A stretch of 14,801 nucleotides of DNA from a virus. Position numbers and translations under genes: made by a program. This document shows positions 1-6,633 of the stretch, one piece after another. The notes under the pieces were generated by a model. The model worked only from the letters and a program-made list of their open reading frames with translations. It ran no database searches and was not told where the DNA came from. Location: the UHGV virus genome UHGV-0275206; one strand, given 5' to 3'. Positions within the stretch are counted from its first letter, which is position 1, and every line of letters begins with the position of its first letter.

Positions 1-189
1 GCGCAGCTTTTCGTTCTCAATTTCAGCATCCCTTTCGGCATACCATTTTATGACGGCGGCAGAATCATAAAGCACCTCATTACCCTTCCCACCACCCCGC
101 AGAACGGGCATTCCCTGCTCCTGCCAGTTCTGAATGGTACGGATACTCGCGCCGAAAATGTCAGCCAGCTGCTTTTTGTTGACTTCCAT
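1..189 (-). CDS. nu1: Terminase small subunit Nu1, N-terminal part (gene runs off the window start)
   Basis: Reverse-complement translation from ATG at 189..187 reads MEVNKKQLADIFGASIRTIQNWQEQGMPVLRGGGKGNEVLYDSAAVIKWYAERDAEIENEKLR, which matches my recollection of the lambda Nu1 N-terminus (HTH region). Not in the supplied ORF track because it is truncated at position 1. Confidence 0.95.
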   Translation of the reverse strand, partial: MEVNKKQLADIFGASIRTIQNWQEQGMPVLRGGGKGNEVLYDSAAVIKWYAERDAEIENEKLR

Positions 190-420
190 TGTTCATTCCA
201 CGGACAAAAACAGAGAAAGGAAACGACAGAGGCCAAAAAGCCCGTTTTCAGCACCTGTCGTTTCCTTTCTTTTCAGGGGGTGTTTTAAATAAAAACATTA
301 AGTTACGACGAAGAAGAACGGAAATGCCTTAAACCGGAAAATTTTCATAAATAGCGAAAACCCGAGAGGTCGCCGCCCCGTAACCTGTCGGATCGCCGGA
401 AAGGACCCGCAAAATGATAA
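190..420. other. Lambda-type cos site: cosB, cosN with 12-nt cohesive end at 367..378, cosQ side
   Basis: Minus strand reads GGGCGGCGACCT (plus 367..378 aggtcgccgccc), followed by sequence I recall as close to the lambda left end (CGGGTTTTCGCTATTTATGAAAATTTTCCGGTTTAAGG...) leading into Nu1. The plus-strand side 379..420 matches the recalled lambda right end (CGTAACCTGTCGGATCGCCGGAAAGGACC). Confidence 0.85.
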
Positions 421-577
421 TAATTATCATCTGCATGTCACAACGTGCATCTACGCCATCAAACCACGTCAAATAATCAATTATGACGCAGGTATCATAT
501 TAATTGATCTGCATCAACTTAACGTAAAAACAACTTCAGACAATACAAATCAGCGACACTAAATACGGGACAACCTC

Positions 578-811
578 ATGTCAACGAAGAACAGAACCCG
601 CAGAACAACAATCCGCAACATCCGCTTTCCTAACCAAATGATTGAACAAATTAACATCGCTCTTGATCAAAAAGGGTCCGGGAATTTCTCAGCCTGGGTC
701 ATTGAAGCCTGCCGCCGGAGACTGTGCTCAGAAAAAAGAGTTTCTCCTGAAGCAAACAAAGAAAAGAGTGACATTACTGAATTGCTCAGAAAACAGATCA
801 GACCAGATTGA
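578..811 (+). CDS. Small ribbon-helix-helix-like DNA-binding protein (77 aa), first gene of an AT-rich plus-strand moron
   Basis: ORF MSTKNRTRRTTIRNIRFPNQMIEQINIALDQKGSGNFSAWVIEACRRRL...; the beta-strand then two-helix pattern resembles CopG/Arc RHH regulators (pattern judgement, not searched). AT-rich upstream region with repeated ATCTGCAT motifs. Orientation is opposite to the late genes. Confidence 0.55.
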   Translation: MSTKNRTRRTTIRNIRFPNQMIEQINIALDQKGSGNFSAWVIEACRRRLCSEKRVSPEANKEKSDITELLRKQIRPD

Positions 812-867
812 AGCAATTTAGATAATCGTGCAGACTACGCCCCTCATATCACATGGAAGGTACTACA

Positions 868-1278
868 ATGGCTCAGGTTGCCATTTTTAAACAAATATTC
901 GATAAAGTGCGAAATAATTTAAACTATCACTGGTTTTATTCTGAACTAAAACGTCACAATGTCTCACATTACATTTACTATTTAGCTACAGAGAATATTC
1001 ATCTTGTTCTTGAAAACGATAATACGGTTTTAATAAAAGGACAGGGTAAGGTTGTAAATGTAAGATTTTCAAAAAATAAATGCCTTATAGAAGCCACCTT
1101 AAAAGGATTCAAATCAGGAGAGTTATCATTTTACGAATACAGGAAAAATCTTGCTACAGCAGGGGTTTTCAGATGGATTACAAATATCCACGAAAACAAA
1201 AGGTATTACTATACCTTTGATAATTCATTACTCTTTACTGAGAACATTCAGAACACTACACAAATATTTCCGCACTAA
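868..1278 (+). CDS. Hypothetical protein (136 aa from the second ATG), AT-rich, partner of the RHH gene
   Basis: ORF 853..1278; ATG at 868 is preceded by GGAAGG with 7-nt spacing. Low GC by eye (about one third). Tyr/Asn/Lys-rich and no motif I recognise. Sits at the Rz-to-cos position where lambda carries bor and related prophages carry morons. Confidence 0.55.
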
Positions 1279-1534
1279 ATCATAACGTCCGGTTTCTTCC
1301 GTGCCAGAACCGGACTCGCTGGCATGATGAAATATGTGTACCCGGTAACCCCGGTGTGCATCGTTTTTGATTATTCCCGCACACTCGCGCAGAAGGAGTT
1401 CCCCGTCGGGCTACGGTCTCTGTTAATACGGGAATACGGCGACGATACAGCGCATGATGTGTCAGGCTTGAATACCTTTATCCTTTAAAAGGGATATCAG
1501 TTAAGTTATCCCGTGTAGGGTATAAACCATTATC

Positions 1535-1562
1535 AAAGCCACTCTGTAGGAAGTGGCTTTTG
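1535..1562 (+). terminator. Hairpin with T-tract downstream of the plus-strand moron
   Basis: Perfect inverted repeat AAAGCCACT (1535..1543) and AGTGGCTTT (1552..1560) with 8-nt loop, followed by TTTTG. Confidence 0.5.
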
Positions 1563-1570
1563 TAATGGCA

Positions 1571-1599
1571 ATAAAAAGCCCCGCGAATGCGAGGCTAAA
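1571..1599 (-). terminator. Rho-independent terminator downstream of Rz/Rz1 (minus strand)
   Basis: Minus strand AGCCTCGC-ATTC-GCGGGGCT (8-bp stem with one G-U, tetraloop) followed by TTTTTAT. Confidence 0.6.
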
Positions 1600-1769
1600 T
1601 CCTGGTATTTGTAATGACTGGTTCTTATCTCAACGCAGCCCCTTACCGCGCGCAAAATGCTCAATATCAAGCATCAGCAATGAGATGTTTAATCTGGATT
1701 CACTCCAGAAGTGAGCACCACCCTGTCTACAGAGCCAGATGTGAAGGATGATGAGTAAAATTATCGCTA

Positions 1770-2237
1770 TCATCGAAGGCATTGCGTCCTGATGTATTCC
1801 TGAAGCGTTCTCAGTGCTGTTTGGTCGCGGATAATTCCGTCCCGGATACCGAGAACGTTTCGTCCAGCAACTGGAGAGAGTTCGACGGTGGCATCATTGC
1901 CCATGCCGGAGGCGCTGGAGGTTTCGGCTGAGGATGGCACAGGGCATTTTCCTTTGACGAGCACCCGACCACCATTATCAAGCTTGCGCCGAAGAGCATC
2001 ATTTTCAGCTTTCGCATCAGCTAACTCCTTCGTGTATTTATCATCGAGTGCATCAGCATCACGCTGGCGCTGCTGCATGTCAGTAATGGTGGCGTTCGCC
2101 TTCTCCAGTTCACTGGCCTTGTTATCGCGCTGTTCTTTGTAGGCGATTGCATTATCACGGTAATGATTAACAGCCCATGACAGGCAGACGATGATGCAGA
2201 TAACCAGAGCGGAGATAATCGCGGTTACCCTGCTCAT
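1770..2237 (-). CDS. Rz: Spanin inner-membrane subunit Rz (i-spanin)
   Basis: From ATG 2237: [38 protein letters not shown]...[15 protein letters not shown], matching the lambda Rz N-terminus as I recall it. ATGA overlap with the endolysin stop. Confidence 0.88.
1811..2017 (-). CDS. Rz1: Spanin outer-membrane lipoprotein Rz1 (o-spanin), embedded in the +1 frame of Rz
   Basis: [39 protein letters not shown]...: signal peptide, lipobox (VVGC) and proline-rich segment typical of Rz1; entirely inside Rz. Confidence 0.75.
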
Positions 2238-2731
2238 TGTTGCCCCCACAAACAGACCTCACGCTCAATCTCACGACGAGTCATCAGGCCTTTCCATTGC
2301 TTACCGCCAGCGTATGCCCAGCGACGTAGCTGGTCACATGCGCCCTTGATATCGCCCTGGTTTATTTTGCGAAGAAGAGTAGATGTTCTGAAATTGCCTG
2401 CGCCCACGTTATAGACGAACGAGTAAAGAGCGCCGCGCGTTGTTTCCGGTATATCGACTTTGATGTACGGGTTAATTTGTCTGGCGACCGTGGCAAGGTC
2501 TTTATTCAGGAGGGCTTTGCATTCTGCTTCGGTATACGTTTTACCTAGCATGATGTCTTTTCCGGTGTGTCCGTAACATACAGTCCATACACCAACAATA
2601 TCTTTGTATGGTATGTGGCTAACACCTTCCAGACCATCGTCACCACTTGGGCCAGTGATTAACACAGATGCTATAGCAATTGCCCCACCACCAATAGCAG
2701 CAGCAACAGCCTTGCGTAATGATGGCGACAT
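2234..2731 (-). CDS. R: SAR endolysin (T4-lysozyme-like muramidase, phage 21 R-type)
   Basis: 165 aa, [59 protein letters not shown]...: Gly/Ala-rich N-terminal signal-anchor-release domain followed by a lysozyme fold; near-identical to what I recall of phage 21 R. Overlaps the holin stop by ATGA/TAATG coupling. Confidence 0.9.
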
Positions 2732-2946
2732 TATTCACCTCTCGCAGCCTTACGCTTATCTTCTTTAATCTTGAAATAAAGGTTTGTCAGATACGTCAGC
2801 AAGCCAAATACCAGACTACCCAGCACTCCAATTGCCGCCCACTGTGAGGGCGTGACTTTATCGAGCAACTGTAAAAACCAGTACCCGACACTACCTGCTG
2901 AGGTGCCATAGGCGACACCCGTTGTTAACTTATCCATGGATTTCAT
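2731..2946 (-). CDS. S: Pinholin, class II holin of phage 21 S type, with dual-start motif (MKSMDK)
   Basis: From ATG 2946: [71 protein letters not shown] (71 aa). The MKS-M start pair gives antiholin and holin forms. SD GAGGTGG upstream. The ORF-track extension to 3009 begins with GTG and is unlikely. Confidence 0.9.
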
Positions 2947-2983
2947 AACCCCACCTCGCAGATGCGGGTGCTGTGTAATGGAA

Positions 2984-3008
2984 ATAAAAAGGCCACCTGA
3001 CGTGGCCA
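2984..3008 (-). terminator. Rho-independent terminator between the methyltransferase gene and the holin (minus strand)
   Basis: Minus strand GGCCAC-GTCAG-GTGGCC (plus 2991..3007) immediately followed by TTTTTATTT. Confidence 0.7.
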
Positions 3009-3013
3009 CCAGA

Positions 3014-4066
3014 TTATTTCCCCACCAGCTCGTTTATCTCTTTCACTGTCTGGTTAAACCGCTCTGACTCAAGCTCAACACCTAAGGCCCGACGCCCCAA
3101 CGCCATTGCTGCTTTTATTGTGGAACCGGATCCCATAAAAAAATCAGCAACCAGATCACCAGGTCGACTACTGGCATTGATTATTTGCCTGAGCATATCC
3201 GCCGGTTTCTCACACGGATGTTTACCCGGGTAGAACTGAACGGGTTTATGCATCCAGACATCGGTATAAGGCACGGAGACTGATACGGAGAAATAGCGCC
3301 GGAGAGATTTAAACTCATCCAGCAATTCAGAATATTTACGATTCAGTGAATCATAAGATGCCACCAGTTGGTGGTGTGGTTGTTCCAGTTGTTGTTCCTG
3401 AAACTTCTCTGCCGCTATACGGGAAAACAGTGCCTGTAACTTCCGATAGTCAGCCTCATTCGGCAACTGCCACTGACTGGCACCAAACCAGTGGGAAACC
3501 ATATTTTTCTTACCTGTGGCTTCGGCAATTTGTTTTGCCGTTATACCCAGTTCGGCACGAGCATCCCTGAAATACGATATCAGCGGTGCCATTATGTGCT
3601 GTTTGAGTTCCCTTTCTTTTGCCGCATAGCCGTCACTTTTGCCGCGATATGGCCCCTGGTAATGTTCAGCAAACAGAACGCGCTCTGTGGCAGGAAAATA
3701 TGCGCGCAGACTTTCTTTATTACACCCATTCCAACGTCCGGACGGCTTCGCCCAGATGATATGGTTAAGCACGTTGAAACGTTCACGCATCATGATCTCA
3801 ATATCAGATGCCAGGCGATGCCCACAGAACAGGTAAAGGCTTCCGGCAGGTTTCAACACCCGCCAGAACTGGGCCAGACAGTGGTCCAGCCACTTAAGGT
3901 AATCTTCGTCCCCTTTCCACTGATTGTCCCAGCCGTTGGGTTTCACCTTGAAGTAAGGCGGATCGGTAACAATCAGGTCAATGGAATCATCAGGCAGGGA
4001 CTGAATAAAATGCAGGCAATCAGCGTTGATTAAATCAACACTGTTTATTTTTACAGTATTTTTCAT
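3014..4066 (-). CDS. DNA methyltransferase, beta-class (motif IV DPPY before motif I FxGxG); likely N6-adenine-specific orphan MTase
   Basis: 350 aa; [10 protein letters not shown] near the N-terminus and DFFMGSGST near the C-terminus. No adjacent restriction endonuclease gene. No SD at the start. Confidence 0.85.
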
Positions 4067-4695: not shown

Positions 4696-5559
4696 TTGGA
4701 TAGTTCTACCACTTTCAAAGTCTTCTATGATGCCGAAGATGAAGAATTAGCACAGCATAAGATTGATGCAAAAACACTAAGTTTATCAATAGGGTCTATG
4801 GCTGACCTTATTGCAAAGGCGGATCGAAATCTTAATGATGGGCAGGAAACAGTCAAATTGATGGTTACCGCTCCTGCTGCACCTGGATCAATCGGTGTTA
4901 TTTATTCAATGCAAGAGTTAGTTCCTCATGCTGTCGATGTCGCCAAAGCAATTGGACTCACTGTTGCTGGTGGTGCATTAGCTGGTGGCTCAGCTCTTGC
5001 ATTGATTCGACAATTGGGGAGTAGAAAGGTTATTTCTGTTACTCGAAAGGTCGACACACAAGAAGCAGTATTAGAACTTGATGGAGAAGAAATTATTTGT
5101 CATGAGGCTGTTGCAAAGTTAGTGACTGATCCCGAAATACGACAAGCCTTAGTTAACGTAGTTAGAGCACCACTAGATGGTAAAGAGCGCCCGATCTTCA
5201 AAATTACTGATGATAATGGAGAAGAGATTCTCAAGCTTGAAGGAGAAGAAACTGAAGAAATCAAACCACTACCACGTGGTACTTTACTAGAAAAAGAAGT
5301 TTCTATTGATGAGGTTAACGTCAGATTCATTCAAGTAAACTTTGAAGGGAATAAGGGATGGCGAATTGATTATCTTGGTGAAGAACATTCAGTAAGCCTA
5401 GATGACAATGTTTTCCTTTCGCAGGTTCAGGCTGCAACAGTACAATTTTCAAAAGAGGACCTTTATGTTGTTGATTTAGAAACAACAAAAACATTTACTG
5501 CGCGTGGCGTAACAAACCGTTATGCTATCAAAAAAGTTAAACGTAGACGACCAGCTTAA
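4696..5559 (+). CDS. Cargo gene A: acidic 287-aa protein of unknown function with one Gly-zipper hydrophobic segment
   Basis: TTG start 5 nt after SD GAGG. GC about 37-40% by eye versus about 50-55% in flanking phage genes. Segment AKAIGLTVAGGALAGGSALALIRQLG carries GxxxG motifs; basic C-terminal tail KKVKRRRPA. No catalytic motif recognised. Confidence 0.6.
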   Translation: MDSSTTFKVFYDAEDEELAQHKIDAKTLSLSIGSMADLIAKADRNLNDGQETVKLMVTAPAAPGSIGVIYSMQELVPHAVDVAKAIGLTVAGGALAGGSALALIRQLGSRKVISVTRKVDTQEAVLELDGEEIICHEAVAKLVTDPEIRQALVNVVRAPLDGKERPIFKITDDNGEEILKLEGEETEEIKPLPRGTLLEKEVSIDEVNVRFIQVNFEGNKGWRIDYLGEEHSVSLDDNVFLSQVQAATVQFSKEDLYVVDLETTKTFTARGVTNRYAIKKVKRRRPA

Positions 5560-5565
5560 ACAGGA

Positions 5566-5829
5566 ATGATGTTAACCCAGCAGATCATAGAACTCGCGAT
5601 GTGGATAGGGGTGATCATGATATCACCTCTCCTGTTTCGCTTCTCATACGCTGCATCCGCTTTACTATGGCGGAGGTTATTCCCTGTTCGTAAGTTTGAG
5701 TTTGTTTTTGTCGATGAAGTCACCAACGATAAGCGGTCAATCACTATTGTCATGCCTAAAGACAAAAGCAAAACTATCGTTCAACTGATAGAAGAAGCAA
5801 CGAATGACGGCACCAGTTCAAATGTCTGA
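5566..5829 (+). CDS. Cargo gene B: small membrane protein (87 aa, N-terminal transmembrane segment)
   Basis: Starts 7 nt after the gene A stop (AGGA ATG ATG). Hydrophobic stretch LAMWIGVIMISPLLFRFSYAASALLW, then a charged soluble tail. Confidence 0.55.
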   Translation: MMLTQQIIELAMWIGVIMISPLLFRFSYAASALLWRRLFPVRKFEFVFVDEVTNDKRSITIVMPKDKSKTIVQLIEEATNDGTSSNV

Positions 5830-6235
5830 TGAAAAAAAACCAACTAGCCCAGTCACTTCAACCCTCTCTACTGGCGGTTTTGGGATCATTTTGTCAGGTC
5901 TGGTAACATTTTGCGTACCTGATGCCAATTCAAACCTTGCGAAATTACTATATTTAATAATACCTCTTATTTCGGCAATCCTGACATATATACTTTGCTG
6001 GGTAATTGCACGTCATGGACTTGAATCACCAGAAGATGCAGCAAAAAGAAAGCAATGCCTCCGAGATCTCGAGACCATTGATAAGCAATTAGCATCGAAA
6101 TATACCACTGATGAGTTTAGGCAAAAGCTGCTACGCTCTCGAGAAGCAACTGTGGAAATAATGATCAATATAGGAAAAAATAGTACAGCAAATCCATTAC
6201 CAAAATTTGAACAAATTGAGAAAGATACTGTGTAG
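5804..6235 (+). CDS. Cargo gene C: membrane protein (143 aa, or 137 aa from ATG 5822) with two predicted TM helices and a charged C-terminal helical region
   Basis: Overlaps gene B (coupled). TM candidates GGFGIILSGLVTFCV and LAKLLYLIIPLISAILTYILCWVIA; C-terminal KRKQCLRDLETIDKQLASKYTTDEFRQKLLRSREATVEIM. Ends 18 bp from the convergent Q stop. Confidence 0.55.
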   Translation: MTAPVQMSDEKKPTSPVTSTLSTGGFGIILSGLVTFCVPDANSNLAKLLYLIIPLISAILTYILCWVIARHGLESPEDAAKRKQCLRDLETIDKQLASKYTTDEFRQKLLRSREATVEIMINIGKNSTANPLPKFEQIEKDTV

Positions 6236-6253: not shown

Positions 6254-6616
6254 TTAATCCATATCTAATGTTAGATCTAGCATTGAAAGGCAGCCATCAA
6301 TAAACCCCTCAGCCATCTGTATCTCAATGCGTATTAATTTCTCATCCTTTTTACGAGCCTTGGCGAGCTTTCTTTTAGAGATACCGAATAGGTAATGGGC
6401 AACAAGAAGCGAATGTTCGTCCGGCCTTTTTTGCTTTAGACGAGCAAGACAACCTTCAAGAATTAATGCATCACTATCTGAACAAGCCTGACGTGTTTTG
6501 CTTGTATAGGGAAGAAGCCCTTTAAACCCAGCAGCTATAGGAGAATAGTCAACTCCTGAACTATCACTCGCCGCCCATGCTCCCCAACGATCCAGAACCA
6601 TTTGAATATCACGCAT
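6254..6616 (-). CDS. Q: Late-gene antitermination protein Q (short Phage_antitermQ type, as in DLP12 QuuD / phage 82)
   Basis: From ATG 6616: MRDIQMVLDRWGAWAASDSSGVDYSPIAAGFKGLL...EGCLARLKQ...; close in pattern to the roughly 125-aa QuuD-type Q as I recall it. SD GGAG upstream. The track start at 6631 is a TTG. Confidence 0.8.
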   Translation of the reverse strand: MRDIQMVLDRWGAWAASDSSGVDYSPIAAGFKGLLPYTSKTRQACSDSDALILEGCLARLKQKRPDEHSLLVAHYLFGISKRKLAKARKKDEKLIRIEIQMAEGFIDGCLSMLDLTLDMD

Positions 6617-6633
6617 CAACTTTCTCCACAAAA

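Follow-up and report, generated by a model that had tools for sequence, protein, structure and literature searches.

The window, that is, the whole stretch of 14,801 nucleotides of virus genome UHGV-0275206 that was analysed, is 100% identical to an E. coli chromosomal prophage. Its left end carries, on the minus strand, the N-terminus of a Nu1/NohA-type terminase small subunit (1..189, 63 codons, translation MEVNKKQLADIFGASIRTIQNWQEQGMPVLRGGG...), the first late-strand gene past cos, whose homologue is labelled nohA/nohD in three related loci. The cohesive-end sequence AGGTCGCCGCCC, found by inspection at 367..378, is taken to be the lambda cohesive end GGGCGGCGACCT in reverse complement and hence to mark cosN, while the cosQ heptamer AGGACCC is presumably the one at 402-408, from the lambda coordinates. 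Beyond cos, the ORF list bears out the two plus-strand genes described in an earlier note on this DNA: a ynfO/ylcI-family gene (DUF3950) at 578..811, encoding 77 amino acids, and a ydfO/ybcV-family gene (DUF1398) at 868..1278, encoding 136 amino acids, or 141 when read from an ATG at 853. The ATG at 868 is the likely start: a Shine-Dalgarno-like GGAAGG is seen by inspection on the plus strand at 855..860, 7 nt 5' of it, and the ATG at 853 has no Shine-Dalgarno sequence. The right-hand border of this accessory interval is formed by the late operon's final lysis genes, identified from their ORF translations on the minus strand: the Rz spanin (1770..2249), whose homologue is labelled “lysis protein” or “Rz-like spanin” in two related loci, and Rz1 (1811..2017), embedded in Rz. 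The pair is indeed flanked by cos and Rz/Rz1 and, as Nu1, Rz and Rz1 all lie on the minus strand, runs antiparallel to the late operon. The 136-aa gene is also AT-rich as described (GC 0.31 and GC3 0.30, versus 0.48 for the whole window), and the idea that the locus is an AT-rich accessory one (“moron”), oriented against the late operon, is supported. The two genes are 56 nt apart, as they are in the Qin prophage, with no terminator between them, and in the window they may well be co-transcribed.

The pair was known before: the annotations of both E. coli K-12 and lambda include it, neither family is new, and some part of window positions 200-1800 is matched in 4841 of 5426 complete E. coli genomes (~89%), at up to 14 places per genome. 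Both are real genes under purifying selection, as judged from dN/dS values of 0.06-0.35: the core of DUF3950 displays 0.06-0.10 when compared with its copies in Stx phage and JLK-2012 (dS 0.8-1.5), and DUF1398 0.2-0.35.

The 77-aa protein is assigned to DUF3950 by Pfam PF13132 (5e-21, 74.7 bits for a cut-off of 25), NCBIfam NF041551 (35.7 bits, cut-off 30) and phrog_949 (8.8e-33). It has a pI of 10.6 and a basic N-terminal arm, with six K/R among residues 1-20. In the AF2 monomer, the extended arm is followed by two helices (19-32 and 34-53, pLDDT about 87); past residue 50, the C-terminal tail is variable within the family. The N-terminus had been described as ribbon-helix-helix (RHH)-like, and this is plausible, the basic arm being followed by an alternating IRNIRFP segment and then by the two confidently predicted helices. 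Significance in sequence or structure comparison, however, is lacking. A PDB profile search with DUF3950 returned no match of any kind at E<=10, nor did the RHH Pfam models match any of 22 DUF3950 members at that threshold. The hhalign comparison with Arc was not significant either (probability 1.8%, P=0.027), although it placed NIRFP on the NLRWP strand of Arc, which we take to be the counterpart of this motif. The RHH antitoxins ParD2, MazE and KacA are among the weak, non-significant matches in the structure comparison. Arc and Mnt, the RHH repressors of P22 immI, are small basic phage proteins, as is DUF3950, and Arc further resembles it by an N-x-R-x-P strand motif preceding two helices joined by a G-x-S/N turn; they differ by the want of any significant sequence or structure match. 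The RHH antitoxins (ParD, M. tuberculosis MazE, KacA) also score below significance against DUF3950, and they differ further in that its supposed partner, DUF1398, is non-obligatory and matches no toxin family. An RHH fold is at most plausible for DUF3950.

The earlier note had seen no recognisable motif in the 136-aa protein. This proved incorrect: it matches PF07166 (DUF1398) at 3e-43 (147 bits, cut-off 22) over profile positions 1-119 of 119, and PDB ID 2HH8, the NMR structure of YdfO, at 1.4e-69 over residues 1-140, its full length. The protein has a pI of 9.4 and is predicted to be soluble, with no signal peptide and no transmembrane segment (maximal 19-residue Kyte-Doolittle average of 0.39). 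Among 24 diverse DUF1398 members, full conservation is limited to L27 and G99, with Y35, T41, N43, A98, W103 and Y114 nearly invariant; the conserved motifs read [AS]TGN and AGVF[KR]W, and no charged, His or Cys residue is invariant. No other Pfam or PDB sequence profile matches the family. A HEPN_AbiA_CTD match (E=0.014, 15.8 bits versus a cut-off of 27) was judged to be due to chance: it is seen only with the 141-aa form and is absent with the 136-aa form and in 17 of 17 family members. Wherever the source of a genuine relative is named, it belongs to the Enterobacteriaceae. A wide taxonomic range (Nanosynbacter, Kitasatospora, Brevibacillus and others) was rejected, as these matches lie on contigs of about 3.5 kb or 48.5 kb and look like contamination by lambda control DNA. 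Two apparent DUF3950-DUF1398 fusions (P0130 and P0134) were likewise set aside as probable gene-calling or translation-table artefacts rather than Rosetta-stone proteins; P0134 has a W at the position of the ynfO TGA stop and then continues into ydfO.

The spacer between cos and the DUF3950 gene is 97% identical to those of the lambda-type phage HK629, Qin and DLP12, and it contains a Fur-box-like element at 410..430. An inverted-repeat search identified a perfect palindrome, ATGATAAT-A-ATTATCAT, at 414-430, and positions 410-428 match GATAATGATAATCATTATC at 16 of 19 positions; the 19-bp Fur consensus with up to 3 mismatches (<=3) is found once in the window, versus 0.01 matches expected. The element is located some 233 bp before the Nu1 ATG, equivalent to the Qin nohA site (-233), and by alignment its allele type is that of DLP12 nohB. 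The Qin nohA site is gel-shifted by Fur in vitro, and the DLP12 nohB site was predicted at 25.3 bits (PMC2189734). On its sequence, the box at 410-428 is a Fur box homologous to the Qin nohA site. It is overlapped by a minus-strand promoter-like sequence, GTGACA-16-TATCAT (441..414), which points toward Nu1 and not toward the DUF3950 gene. Between cos and position 578, a consensus scan returned no plus-strand sigma-70 promoter and manual inspection weak candidates only. The repeated ATCTGCAT-like motifs that had been proposed as autoregulatory operators do not exceed chance and are not conserved: two exact copies lie upstream (429 and 507), but the window holds 15 matches at <=1 mismatch versus 15.4 expected, and the first copy reads ATCTACAT in HK629, Qin and DLP12. 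No operator motif is common to the lambda-type and Stx-type upstream regions, which share one 8-mer. An Rfam PrrF match at 311-441 (E=0.82, 21.5 bits versus a cut-off of 90) is noise.

On the other side of the pair, comparison revealed a conserved non-coding stretch on the plus strand (1340..1568, fold z-score of -2.9) with a long hairpin (1527-1568) at its end. The stretch is also found 3' of the lone DUF3950 gene of phage 2851, and its sub-part 1477-1566 is kept in many lambdoid and P22-like phages. An Rfam search with this stretch reached the gathering score of no family. It is possibly the 3' end or terminator of a plus-strand transcript.

The closest annotated relatives are found in Qin-type prophages, which share with the window the order nohA, cos, ynfO, ydfO, the strand and the gene sizes (YnfO 77 aa, YdfO 136 aa). 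YnfO is 95% identical to the 77-aa protein, whereas the DUF1398 allele has diverged from Qin-type ydfO (dS 0.70). Qin continues to gnsB, ynfN and cspI, whereas the prophage of the window goes straight to Rz. Lambda and DLP12 likewise have both families in the Rz-cos interval, on the strand opposite the late genes, in the order ylcI - ybcW - ybcV (lambdap79) - bor. The comparison with the position of bor in lambda therefore needs completing: lambda does carry bor there, but in addition to homologues of both genes. Codons 1-50 of ylcI and its upstream spacer are nearly identical to those of the window, but the YlcI tail is shorter (64 aa in all) and bor lies downstream; the window has neither ybcW nor bor. 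About 650 bp separate the two genes in lambda and DLP12, and ybcW lies between them on the opposite strand.

A tblastn survey yielded 154 phage records with DUF3950 but only 43 with DUF1398. In the window, Qin, DLP12, lambda, 2H10, phage 2851 and JLK-2012, DUF3950 is oriented divergently to the packaging genes and against the late operon, and its neighbours belong to two unrelated terminase systems, the lambda-type Nu1/A and the HK97-type HNH/TerS/TerL. In the Stx-type phage 2851 and in JLK-2012 it occurs alone, adjoining HNH/TerS. DUF3950 is also among the listed accessory genes of capsid-forming PICIs, which have their own TerS/TerL (PMC13612085). Conversely, DUF1398 occurs without a DUF3950 neighbour at an e14-type site next to an icd remnant, on the chromosomes of Klebsiella pneumoniae and Pseudocitrobacter, and in another lambdoid prophage; in K-12, the copy at the e14-type site, beside bluR/e14, is ycgX (PMC3509220). 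These lone genes share the Pfam family and the conserved motifs, but they lack the DUF3950 neighbour, and some are found in ordinary parts of the chromosome where GC is higher. The distribution of either family is independent of that of the other. To note, the 77-aa tail variant of DUF3950 is found with a directly adjacent DUF1398 gene in the window, Qin and ev099.

Published data on the K-12 homologues bear mainly on expression. The convergent ybcW and ylcI transcripts overlap in at least half of the MG1655 RNA-seq sets (PMC12288877). A gSELEX PdhR site of DLP12 lies between ybcV and ybcW, and in a pdhR mutant ybcV mRNA is 10-fold lower and ybcW mRNA is also down (PMC7660256). An ionic liquid induces ydfO 117-fold (PMC4077768). 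The latter study, citing Wang et al. 2010, also mentions a role of YdfO in oxidative stress, which was rejected here as a mix-up of names with YfdO: the text of Wang et al. deals with YfdK, YfdO and YfdS of CPS-53, and ydfO is nowhere mentioned. Oxidative-stress resistance is the only published functional claim for YdfO, and it rests on this confusion. In K-12 TraDIS, ydfO is without insertions and is listed as essential only by TraDIS, which implies that it is non-essential in other data sets; ynfO is unmentioned in the text of the paper (PMC5821084). Rather than true essentiality, the more likely cause is a bias against insertion into AT-rich DNA that H-NS may bind.

The reading that we consider probable is that of a right-end accessory interval, from Rz to cos, holding two prophage genes of known families, each with its own distribution, and not a coupled two-component system. 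The earlier note had instead suggested a toxin-antitoxin or abortive-infection pair. In its type II form, a DUF1398 toxin would be neutralised by the C-terminal tail of DUF3950, which would act as an RHH antitoxin and as its own repressor. The arrangement invites this idea, with a small basic RHH-like protein encoded directly upstream of the 136-aa protein, 56 nt away on the same strand, and so do the predicted N-terminal DNA-binding core followed by a variable, weakly structured tail resembling those of RHH antitoxins, the weak structural matches to ParD2, MazE and KacA, and the tail variant that accompanies an adjacent DUF1398. Nevertheless, a toxin-antitoxin function is very unlikely. Co-occurrence is not strict (154 versus 43 phage records), lone DUF1398 genes persist in Klebsiella (776 cluster members), Pseudocitrobacter, the e14-type site and another lambdoid prophage, and the operon coupling does not hold in lambda and DLP12, where ybcW intervenes on the other strand and the gSELEX PdhR site suggests a separate control region for ybcV. 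No toxin, antitoxin or defence model of Pfam, NCBIfam or PADLOC matches: with the PADLOC-DB 2.0 defence models, the 77-aa protein returned none and the 141-aa protein only Csx23 (E=0.025, 12.6 bits). DUF1398 has no conserved catalytic residues, its HEPN_AbiA_CTD match is sub-threshold, and the K-12 TraDIS insertions are missing in ydfO and not reported missing for the would-be antitoxin ynfO (PMC5821084). The toxin-antitoxin or defence idea for ynfO-ydfO can be deprioritised.

DUF3950 could also be a transcriptional gatekeeper of a variable cos-adjacent slot, and not an antitoxin. What lies downstream of this constant gene varies indeed, from DUF1398 here to ybcW, ybcV and bor in lambda and nothing in phage 2851. 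One conserved 3' element follows DUF3950 in phage 2851 and DUF1398 in the window, which suggests that DUF1398 was inserted into the DUF3950 transcription unit, and the purifying selection on the DUF3950 core is very strong. Still, we hold this to be rather unlikely, as no conserved operator is detectable, the 97% identity of the lambda-type spacer leaving no footprint, the Stx-type upstream region shares a single 8-mer with the lambda-type one, and in DLP12 the PdhR site and the decrease of both mRNAs in the pdhR mutant point to separate control. In a more elaborate version, an Arc/Mnt-like DUF3950 repressor and the Fur box would together gate an iron- or stress-responsive, prophage-expressed slot adjacent to cos in lambdoid phages, delivering DUF1398 as an effector; this we regard as improbable. 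A link to packaging appears more doubtful still: DUF3950 would be a lysogen-made, cos- or terminase-proximal DNA-binding factor, with a possible role in protecting the prophage cos or in keeping down stray transcription of the terminase, and DUF1398 an unrelated passenger. DUF3950 always immediately and divergently adjoins packaging genes, of two unrelated terminase systems, and is carried by capsid-forming PICIs with their own TerS/TerL; moreover, the promoter-like site over the Fur box points toward Nu1 and, with up to 14 matching places per E. coli genome, cross-cutting of a resident cos is conceivable. This argument is purely positional, however, the Rz-cos interval being a general moron hotspot, and no DNA motif is shared by the two packaging contexts. 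Finally, it is most improbable that DUF1398 is a virion protein. The label “head protein” of phrog_413 and the RefSeq/GenBank labels “head protein” or “putative envelope protein” look like propagated, unsupported annotation: the gene is oriented opposite to the late operon, is missing from about 70% of the DUF3950-carrying phage records and stands alone on the Klebsiella chromosome, and its product has neither signal peptide nor transmembrane segment.

The Rz-cos interval is common to many lambdoid phages. According to the favoured reading of an accessory interval with two separately distributed genes, DUF3950 is its conserved resident, most likely a small dimeric Arc/Mnt-type RHH DNA-binding regulator, and DUF1398 an optional AT-rich cargo placed between the DUF3950 gene and the conserved 3' non-coding element. 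DUF1398 would be a soluble basic protein that more likely binds something than performs catalysis, because none of its charged, His or Cys residues is invariant. Both genes being antisense to the late operon, they would be expressed from the prophage rather than during lysis. Their expression appears to be set by host factors, considering the published reports of PdhR dependence, of a stress response and of a Fur-bound box beside cosQ, and the AT-rich composition suggests H-NS-type silencing.

As a discovery, the ynfO-ydfO pair matters little: it is already annotated, and some part of the DNA around it is matched in most complete E. coli genomes. The most testable lead on a possible regulation of the locus is the Fur box next to cosQ. 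Should the iron- or stress-responsive slot delivering DUF1398 as an effector be true, DUF1398, binding a target in the cell, could serve to block superinfection or to modulate the host, and lambda's own uncharacterised right-end genes would gain a function.

Both plus-strand ORFs between cos and the Rz/Rz1 genes lie where the earlier note placed them: the first spans 578-811 (77 aa) and the second 853/868-1278 (141/136 aa). The start of the second is likely the ATG at 868, as GGAAGG precedes it by 7 nt and the ATG at 853 has no ribosome-binding site; the RefSeq product, also 136 aa long, is consistent with this choice. Both are genuine genes. The 50-codon core of the first displays a dN/dS of 0.06-0.10 against the copies of Stx phages and of JLK-2012 (dS 0.8-1.5); for the second, compared with its Qin and DLP12 alleles, the ratio is 0.2-0.35. 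The 77-aa product belongs to the YlcI/YnfO family (Pfam DUF3950, 5e-21; NCBIfam NF041551, above cut-off; phrog_949). The second gene is AT-rich as described (GC 0.31 and GC3 0.30, versus 0.48 for the window), but its product, said to have no recognisable motif, is a DUF1398 member (Pfam, 3e-43) and matches over its full length the NMR structure of the “hypothetical protein ydfO” (PDB ID 2HH8, 1.4e-69). Two database proteins, P0134 and P0130, carry DUF3950 and DUF1398 in a single chain; P0134 has a Trp at the position of the ynfO TGA stop and then reads on into ydfO, and these joined chains are probably translation-table artefacts of metagenome gene calls.

The window comes from a lambdoid prophage, of which it is the right arm in reversed orientation relative to the lambda map. 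Its minus strand codes for the N-terminal part of the terminase small subunit (1-189, translation MEVNKKQLADIFGAS...) and carries the late lysis genes, namely Rz with Rz1 embedded (1770-2249), lysozyme (2234-2731), and holin (2731-3009). By comparison with lambda, 367-378 is the cohesive-end sequence and 402-408 the cosQ heptamer. Beyond the lysis genes are found a DNA methylase, the Q antiterminator, DUF968, KilA-N, RusA, a replication protein, and a cI-type repressor. E. coli WCHEC020031 has a chromosomal prophage 100% identical to 200-1800, phage ev099 is 99.7% identical to 400-1500, and 4841 of the 5426 complete E. coli genomes match some part of the 1.6 kb at 200-1800, at up to 14 places per genome. 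A Qin-type prophage exhibits an identical layout, annotated nohA/ynfO/ydfO, while DLP12 and lambda harbor ylcI, ybcW (opposite strand), ybcV, and bor. The proposed equivalence with the position of bor does not hold, as lambda possesses homologues of both genes together with bor. Both genes belong to catalogued families present in lambda itself and are already known.

The DUF1398 family is small (189 representatives at 50% identity), most of these representatives being fragments or noisy lambda reads, and every named source of a genuine relative belongs to the Enterobacteriaceae. Lambda DNA, as whole 48.5-kb genomes or ~3.5-kb right-end fragments, occurs inside assemblies of unrelated taxa (Nanosynbacter, Kitasatospora, Brevibacillus, Flavobacterium, and others; loci L004 and L012-L040, and many ENA proteins from ~3.5-kb contigs). 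It is probably sequencing control DNA, and such DNA inflates the apparent host range of DUF3950 and DUF1398. The family profile matches only 2HH8 in the PDB. The labels “envelope protein” and “head protein” (phrog_413, RefSeq, GenBank) are unsupported, since the protein is soluble, basic, and devoid of any hydrophobic segment; a virion role would also fit poorly with the antisense orientation of the gene and its patchy distribution.

An RHH-like N-terminus had been proposed for the DUF3950 protein. The protein is strongly basic (pI 10.6, six K/R among residues 1-20), and AlphaFold predicts an extended arm (1-18) followed by helices 19-32 and 34-53 (pLDDT ~87) and a weaker third helix. The hhalign register sets N14-I-R-F-P18 on N11-L-R-W-P15 of P22 Arc, with a probability of 1.8%, and the turn G-S-G-N-F-S resembles G-R-S-V-N-S of Arc. 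The family profile found nothing in the PDB, the RHH Pfam models did not match even at E<=10, and the Foldseek match to ParD2 has an E-value of 7.9. The basic arm, the two predicted helices, and the Arc-like register make the RHH fold a fair lead, reasonable but unproven, while significant sequence or structure matches are lacking.

Downstream of the DUF1398 gene, a conserved non-coding stretch (~1340-1568, fold z = -2.9) terminates in a long hairpin (1527-1568). It has no Rfam family match and may act as a terminator or 3'UTR element or give rise to an sRNA. Many lambdoid and P22-like phages share its distal part at their right end, 1477-1566 being 88-96% conserved in Sf6, HK97, epsilon34, CUS-3, and mEp phages. 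In Stx phage 2851, this stretch (3440-3660 of the locus there) comes after the lone DUF3950 gene, so that the AT-rich DUF1398 gene seems to have been inserted behind a resident DUF3950 gene and ahead of a shared 3' element, as in the classical picture of a moron. The moron label of the earlier note stands, and its observation was largely right. To note, two small ORFs of the DUF1398-Rz gap have no family match: a 54-aa ORF annotated in ev099 (1324-1488, plus strand) and a hydrophobic 50-aa ORF directly after Rz (1630-1782, minus strand), a “hypothetical protein” in a RefSeq-annotated E. coli prophage.

Upstream of the pair, the suggested ATCTGCAT operators amount to two copies (429 and 507) without enrichment, as 15 matches with at most one mismatch occur in the whole window versus 15.4 expected; the counterpart of the first copy in lambda-type HK629, Qin, and DLP12 is ATCTACAT. 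Unlike this pair, the perfect palindrome ATGATAAT-A-ATTATCAT at 414-430 is striking. At 410-428 the sequence agrees with the Fur box at 16/19 positions, the single such match in the window versus 0.01 expected. The distance from this match to the Nu1 start downstream is ~233 bp, which is the position reported for the Qin nohA Fur site. Fur gel-shifted that site, which was also recovered in vivo, and a DLP12 nohB site was predicted with 25.3 bits (PMC2189734); by alignment, the window shares the nohB allele type. A promoter-like GTGACA-16-TATCAT (441..414, minus strand) overlaps the Fur box beside cosQ and is directed across cos to Nu1, and no good plus-strand sigma-70 promoter was found upstream of 578; Fur control of ynfO-ydfO is therefore only a possibility. 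The region may yield a short transcript that crosses cos under Fur control, or be a Fur-bound site without promoter function. A terminator-like hairpin (380..363, minus strand) overlaps cosN.

Expression of the K-12 homologues is documented. Convergent ybcW/ylcI transcripts overlap in at least half of the MG1655 RNA-seq sets (PMC12288877), ydfO is up 117-fold with an imidazolium ionic liquid (PMC4077768), and it changes upon DicC overexpression (PMC11430063). The statement that YdfO overexpression protects against oxidative stress (PMC4077768) is a mis-citation through a YdfO/YfdO name mix-up: the study cited (PMC3105296) deals with YfdK, YfdO, and YfdS of prophage CPS-53 and does not mention ydfO. 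The listing of ydfO as “essential only by TraDIS” (PMC5821084) we infer to reflect insertion bias in AT-rich DNA. At the 3' end of ynfO, 790-806 is the counterpart of the Qin gSELEX PdhR box AAcaGGTcagACCAgaT, weaker in the window allele because its GGT half-site reads GAT (Ile for Val codon change).

The notion that the two genes form a coupled toxin-antitoxin or defence pair is not supported. By tblastn, DUF3950 occurs in 154 records of the phage collection and DUF1398 in only 43. Phages 2851 and JLK-2012 harbor DUF3950 without DUF1398, divergent from packaging genes (HNH, TerS, TerL) of a different type from those of the window. Conversely, DUF1398 lacks a DUF3950 neighbour beside the icd remnant at an e14-type site (ycgX in K-12), between tusA-like and pmp3 genes in the Klebsiella pneumoniae chromosome (776 sequences in the cluster), in Pseudocitrobacter next to a polyketide-like cluster, and in the Nu1-Rz interval of another E. 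coli lambdoid prophage. In lambda and DLP12, ~650 bp and ybcW separate the two genes, compared to 56 nt in the window; gSELEX located a PdhR site between ybcV and ybcW, whose mRNAs both drop ~10-fold in a pdhR mutant (PMC7660256). Neither protein matches toxin, antitoxin, or defence models. A sub-threshold HEPN_AbiA_CTD match was rejected, as it needs the 5-residue N-terminal extension and none of 17 family members gives it. Among 24 diverse DUF1398 proteins, only L27 and G99 are invariant, and Y35, T41, N43, A98, W103, and Y114 nearly so; no acidic, basic, His, or Cys position is invariant, which speaks against a toxin that acts as an enzyme. The toxin-antitoxin reading survives at a low level: no terminator separates the closely spaced window genes, the 77-aa tail variant of DUF3950 accompanies an adjacent DUF1398 gene, and a conserved core with a variable tail is a layout like that of RHH antitoxins. 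However, simple linkage accounts equally well for all three features, and the lambda-type arrangement alone has at least two different DUF3950 tails.

A better defence candidate is a three-gene block at 4696-6235 (plus strand), which runs antisense to the late operon and lies between the Q antiterminator (6254-6631, minus strand) and the DNA methylase/lysis genes. Its first gene (4696-5559, 287 aa) has matches in PADLOC, to the candidate defence family PDC-S42 (E=1e-32), and in NCBIfam, to the “LAPAL motif-containing putative phage structural protein” (2.7e-61); no family model reached its cut-off for ORFs 5566-5829 and 5804-6235.

The ynfO-ydfO locus most likely comprises two separately distributed accessory genes, expressed from the prophage under host control: DUF3950 would be a small DNA-binding regulator and DUF1398 a non-enzymatic binding protein. 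The locus draws attention to an old gap in lambda biology.
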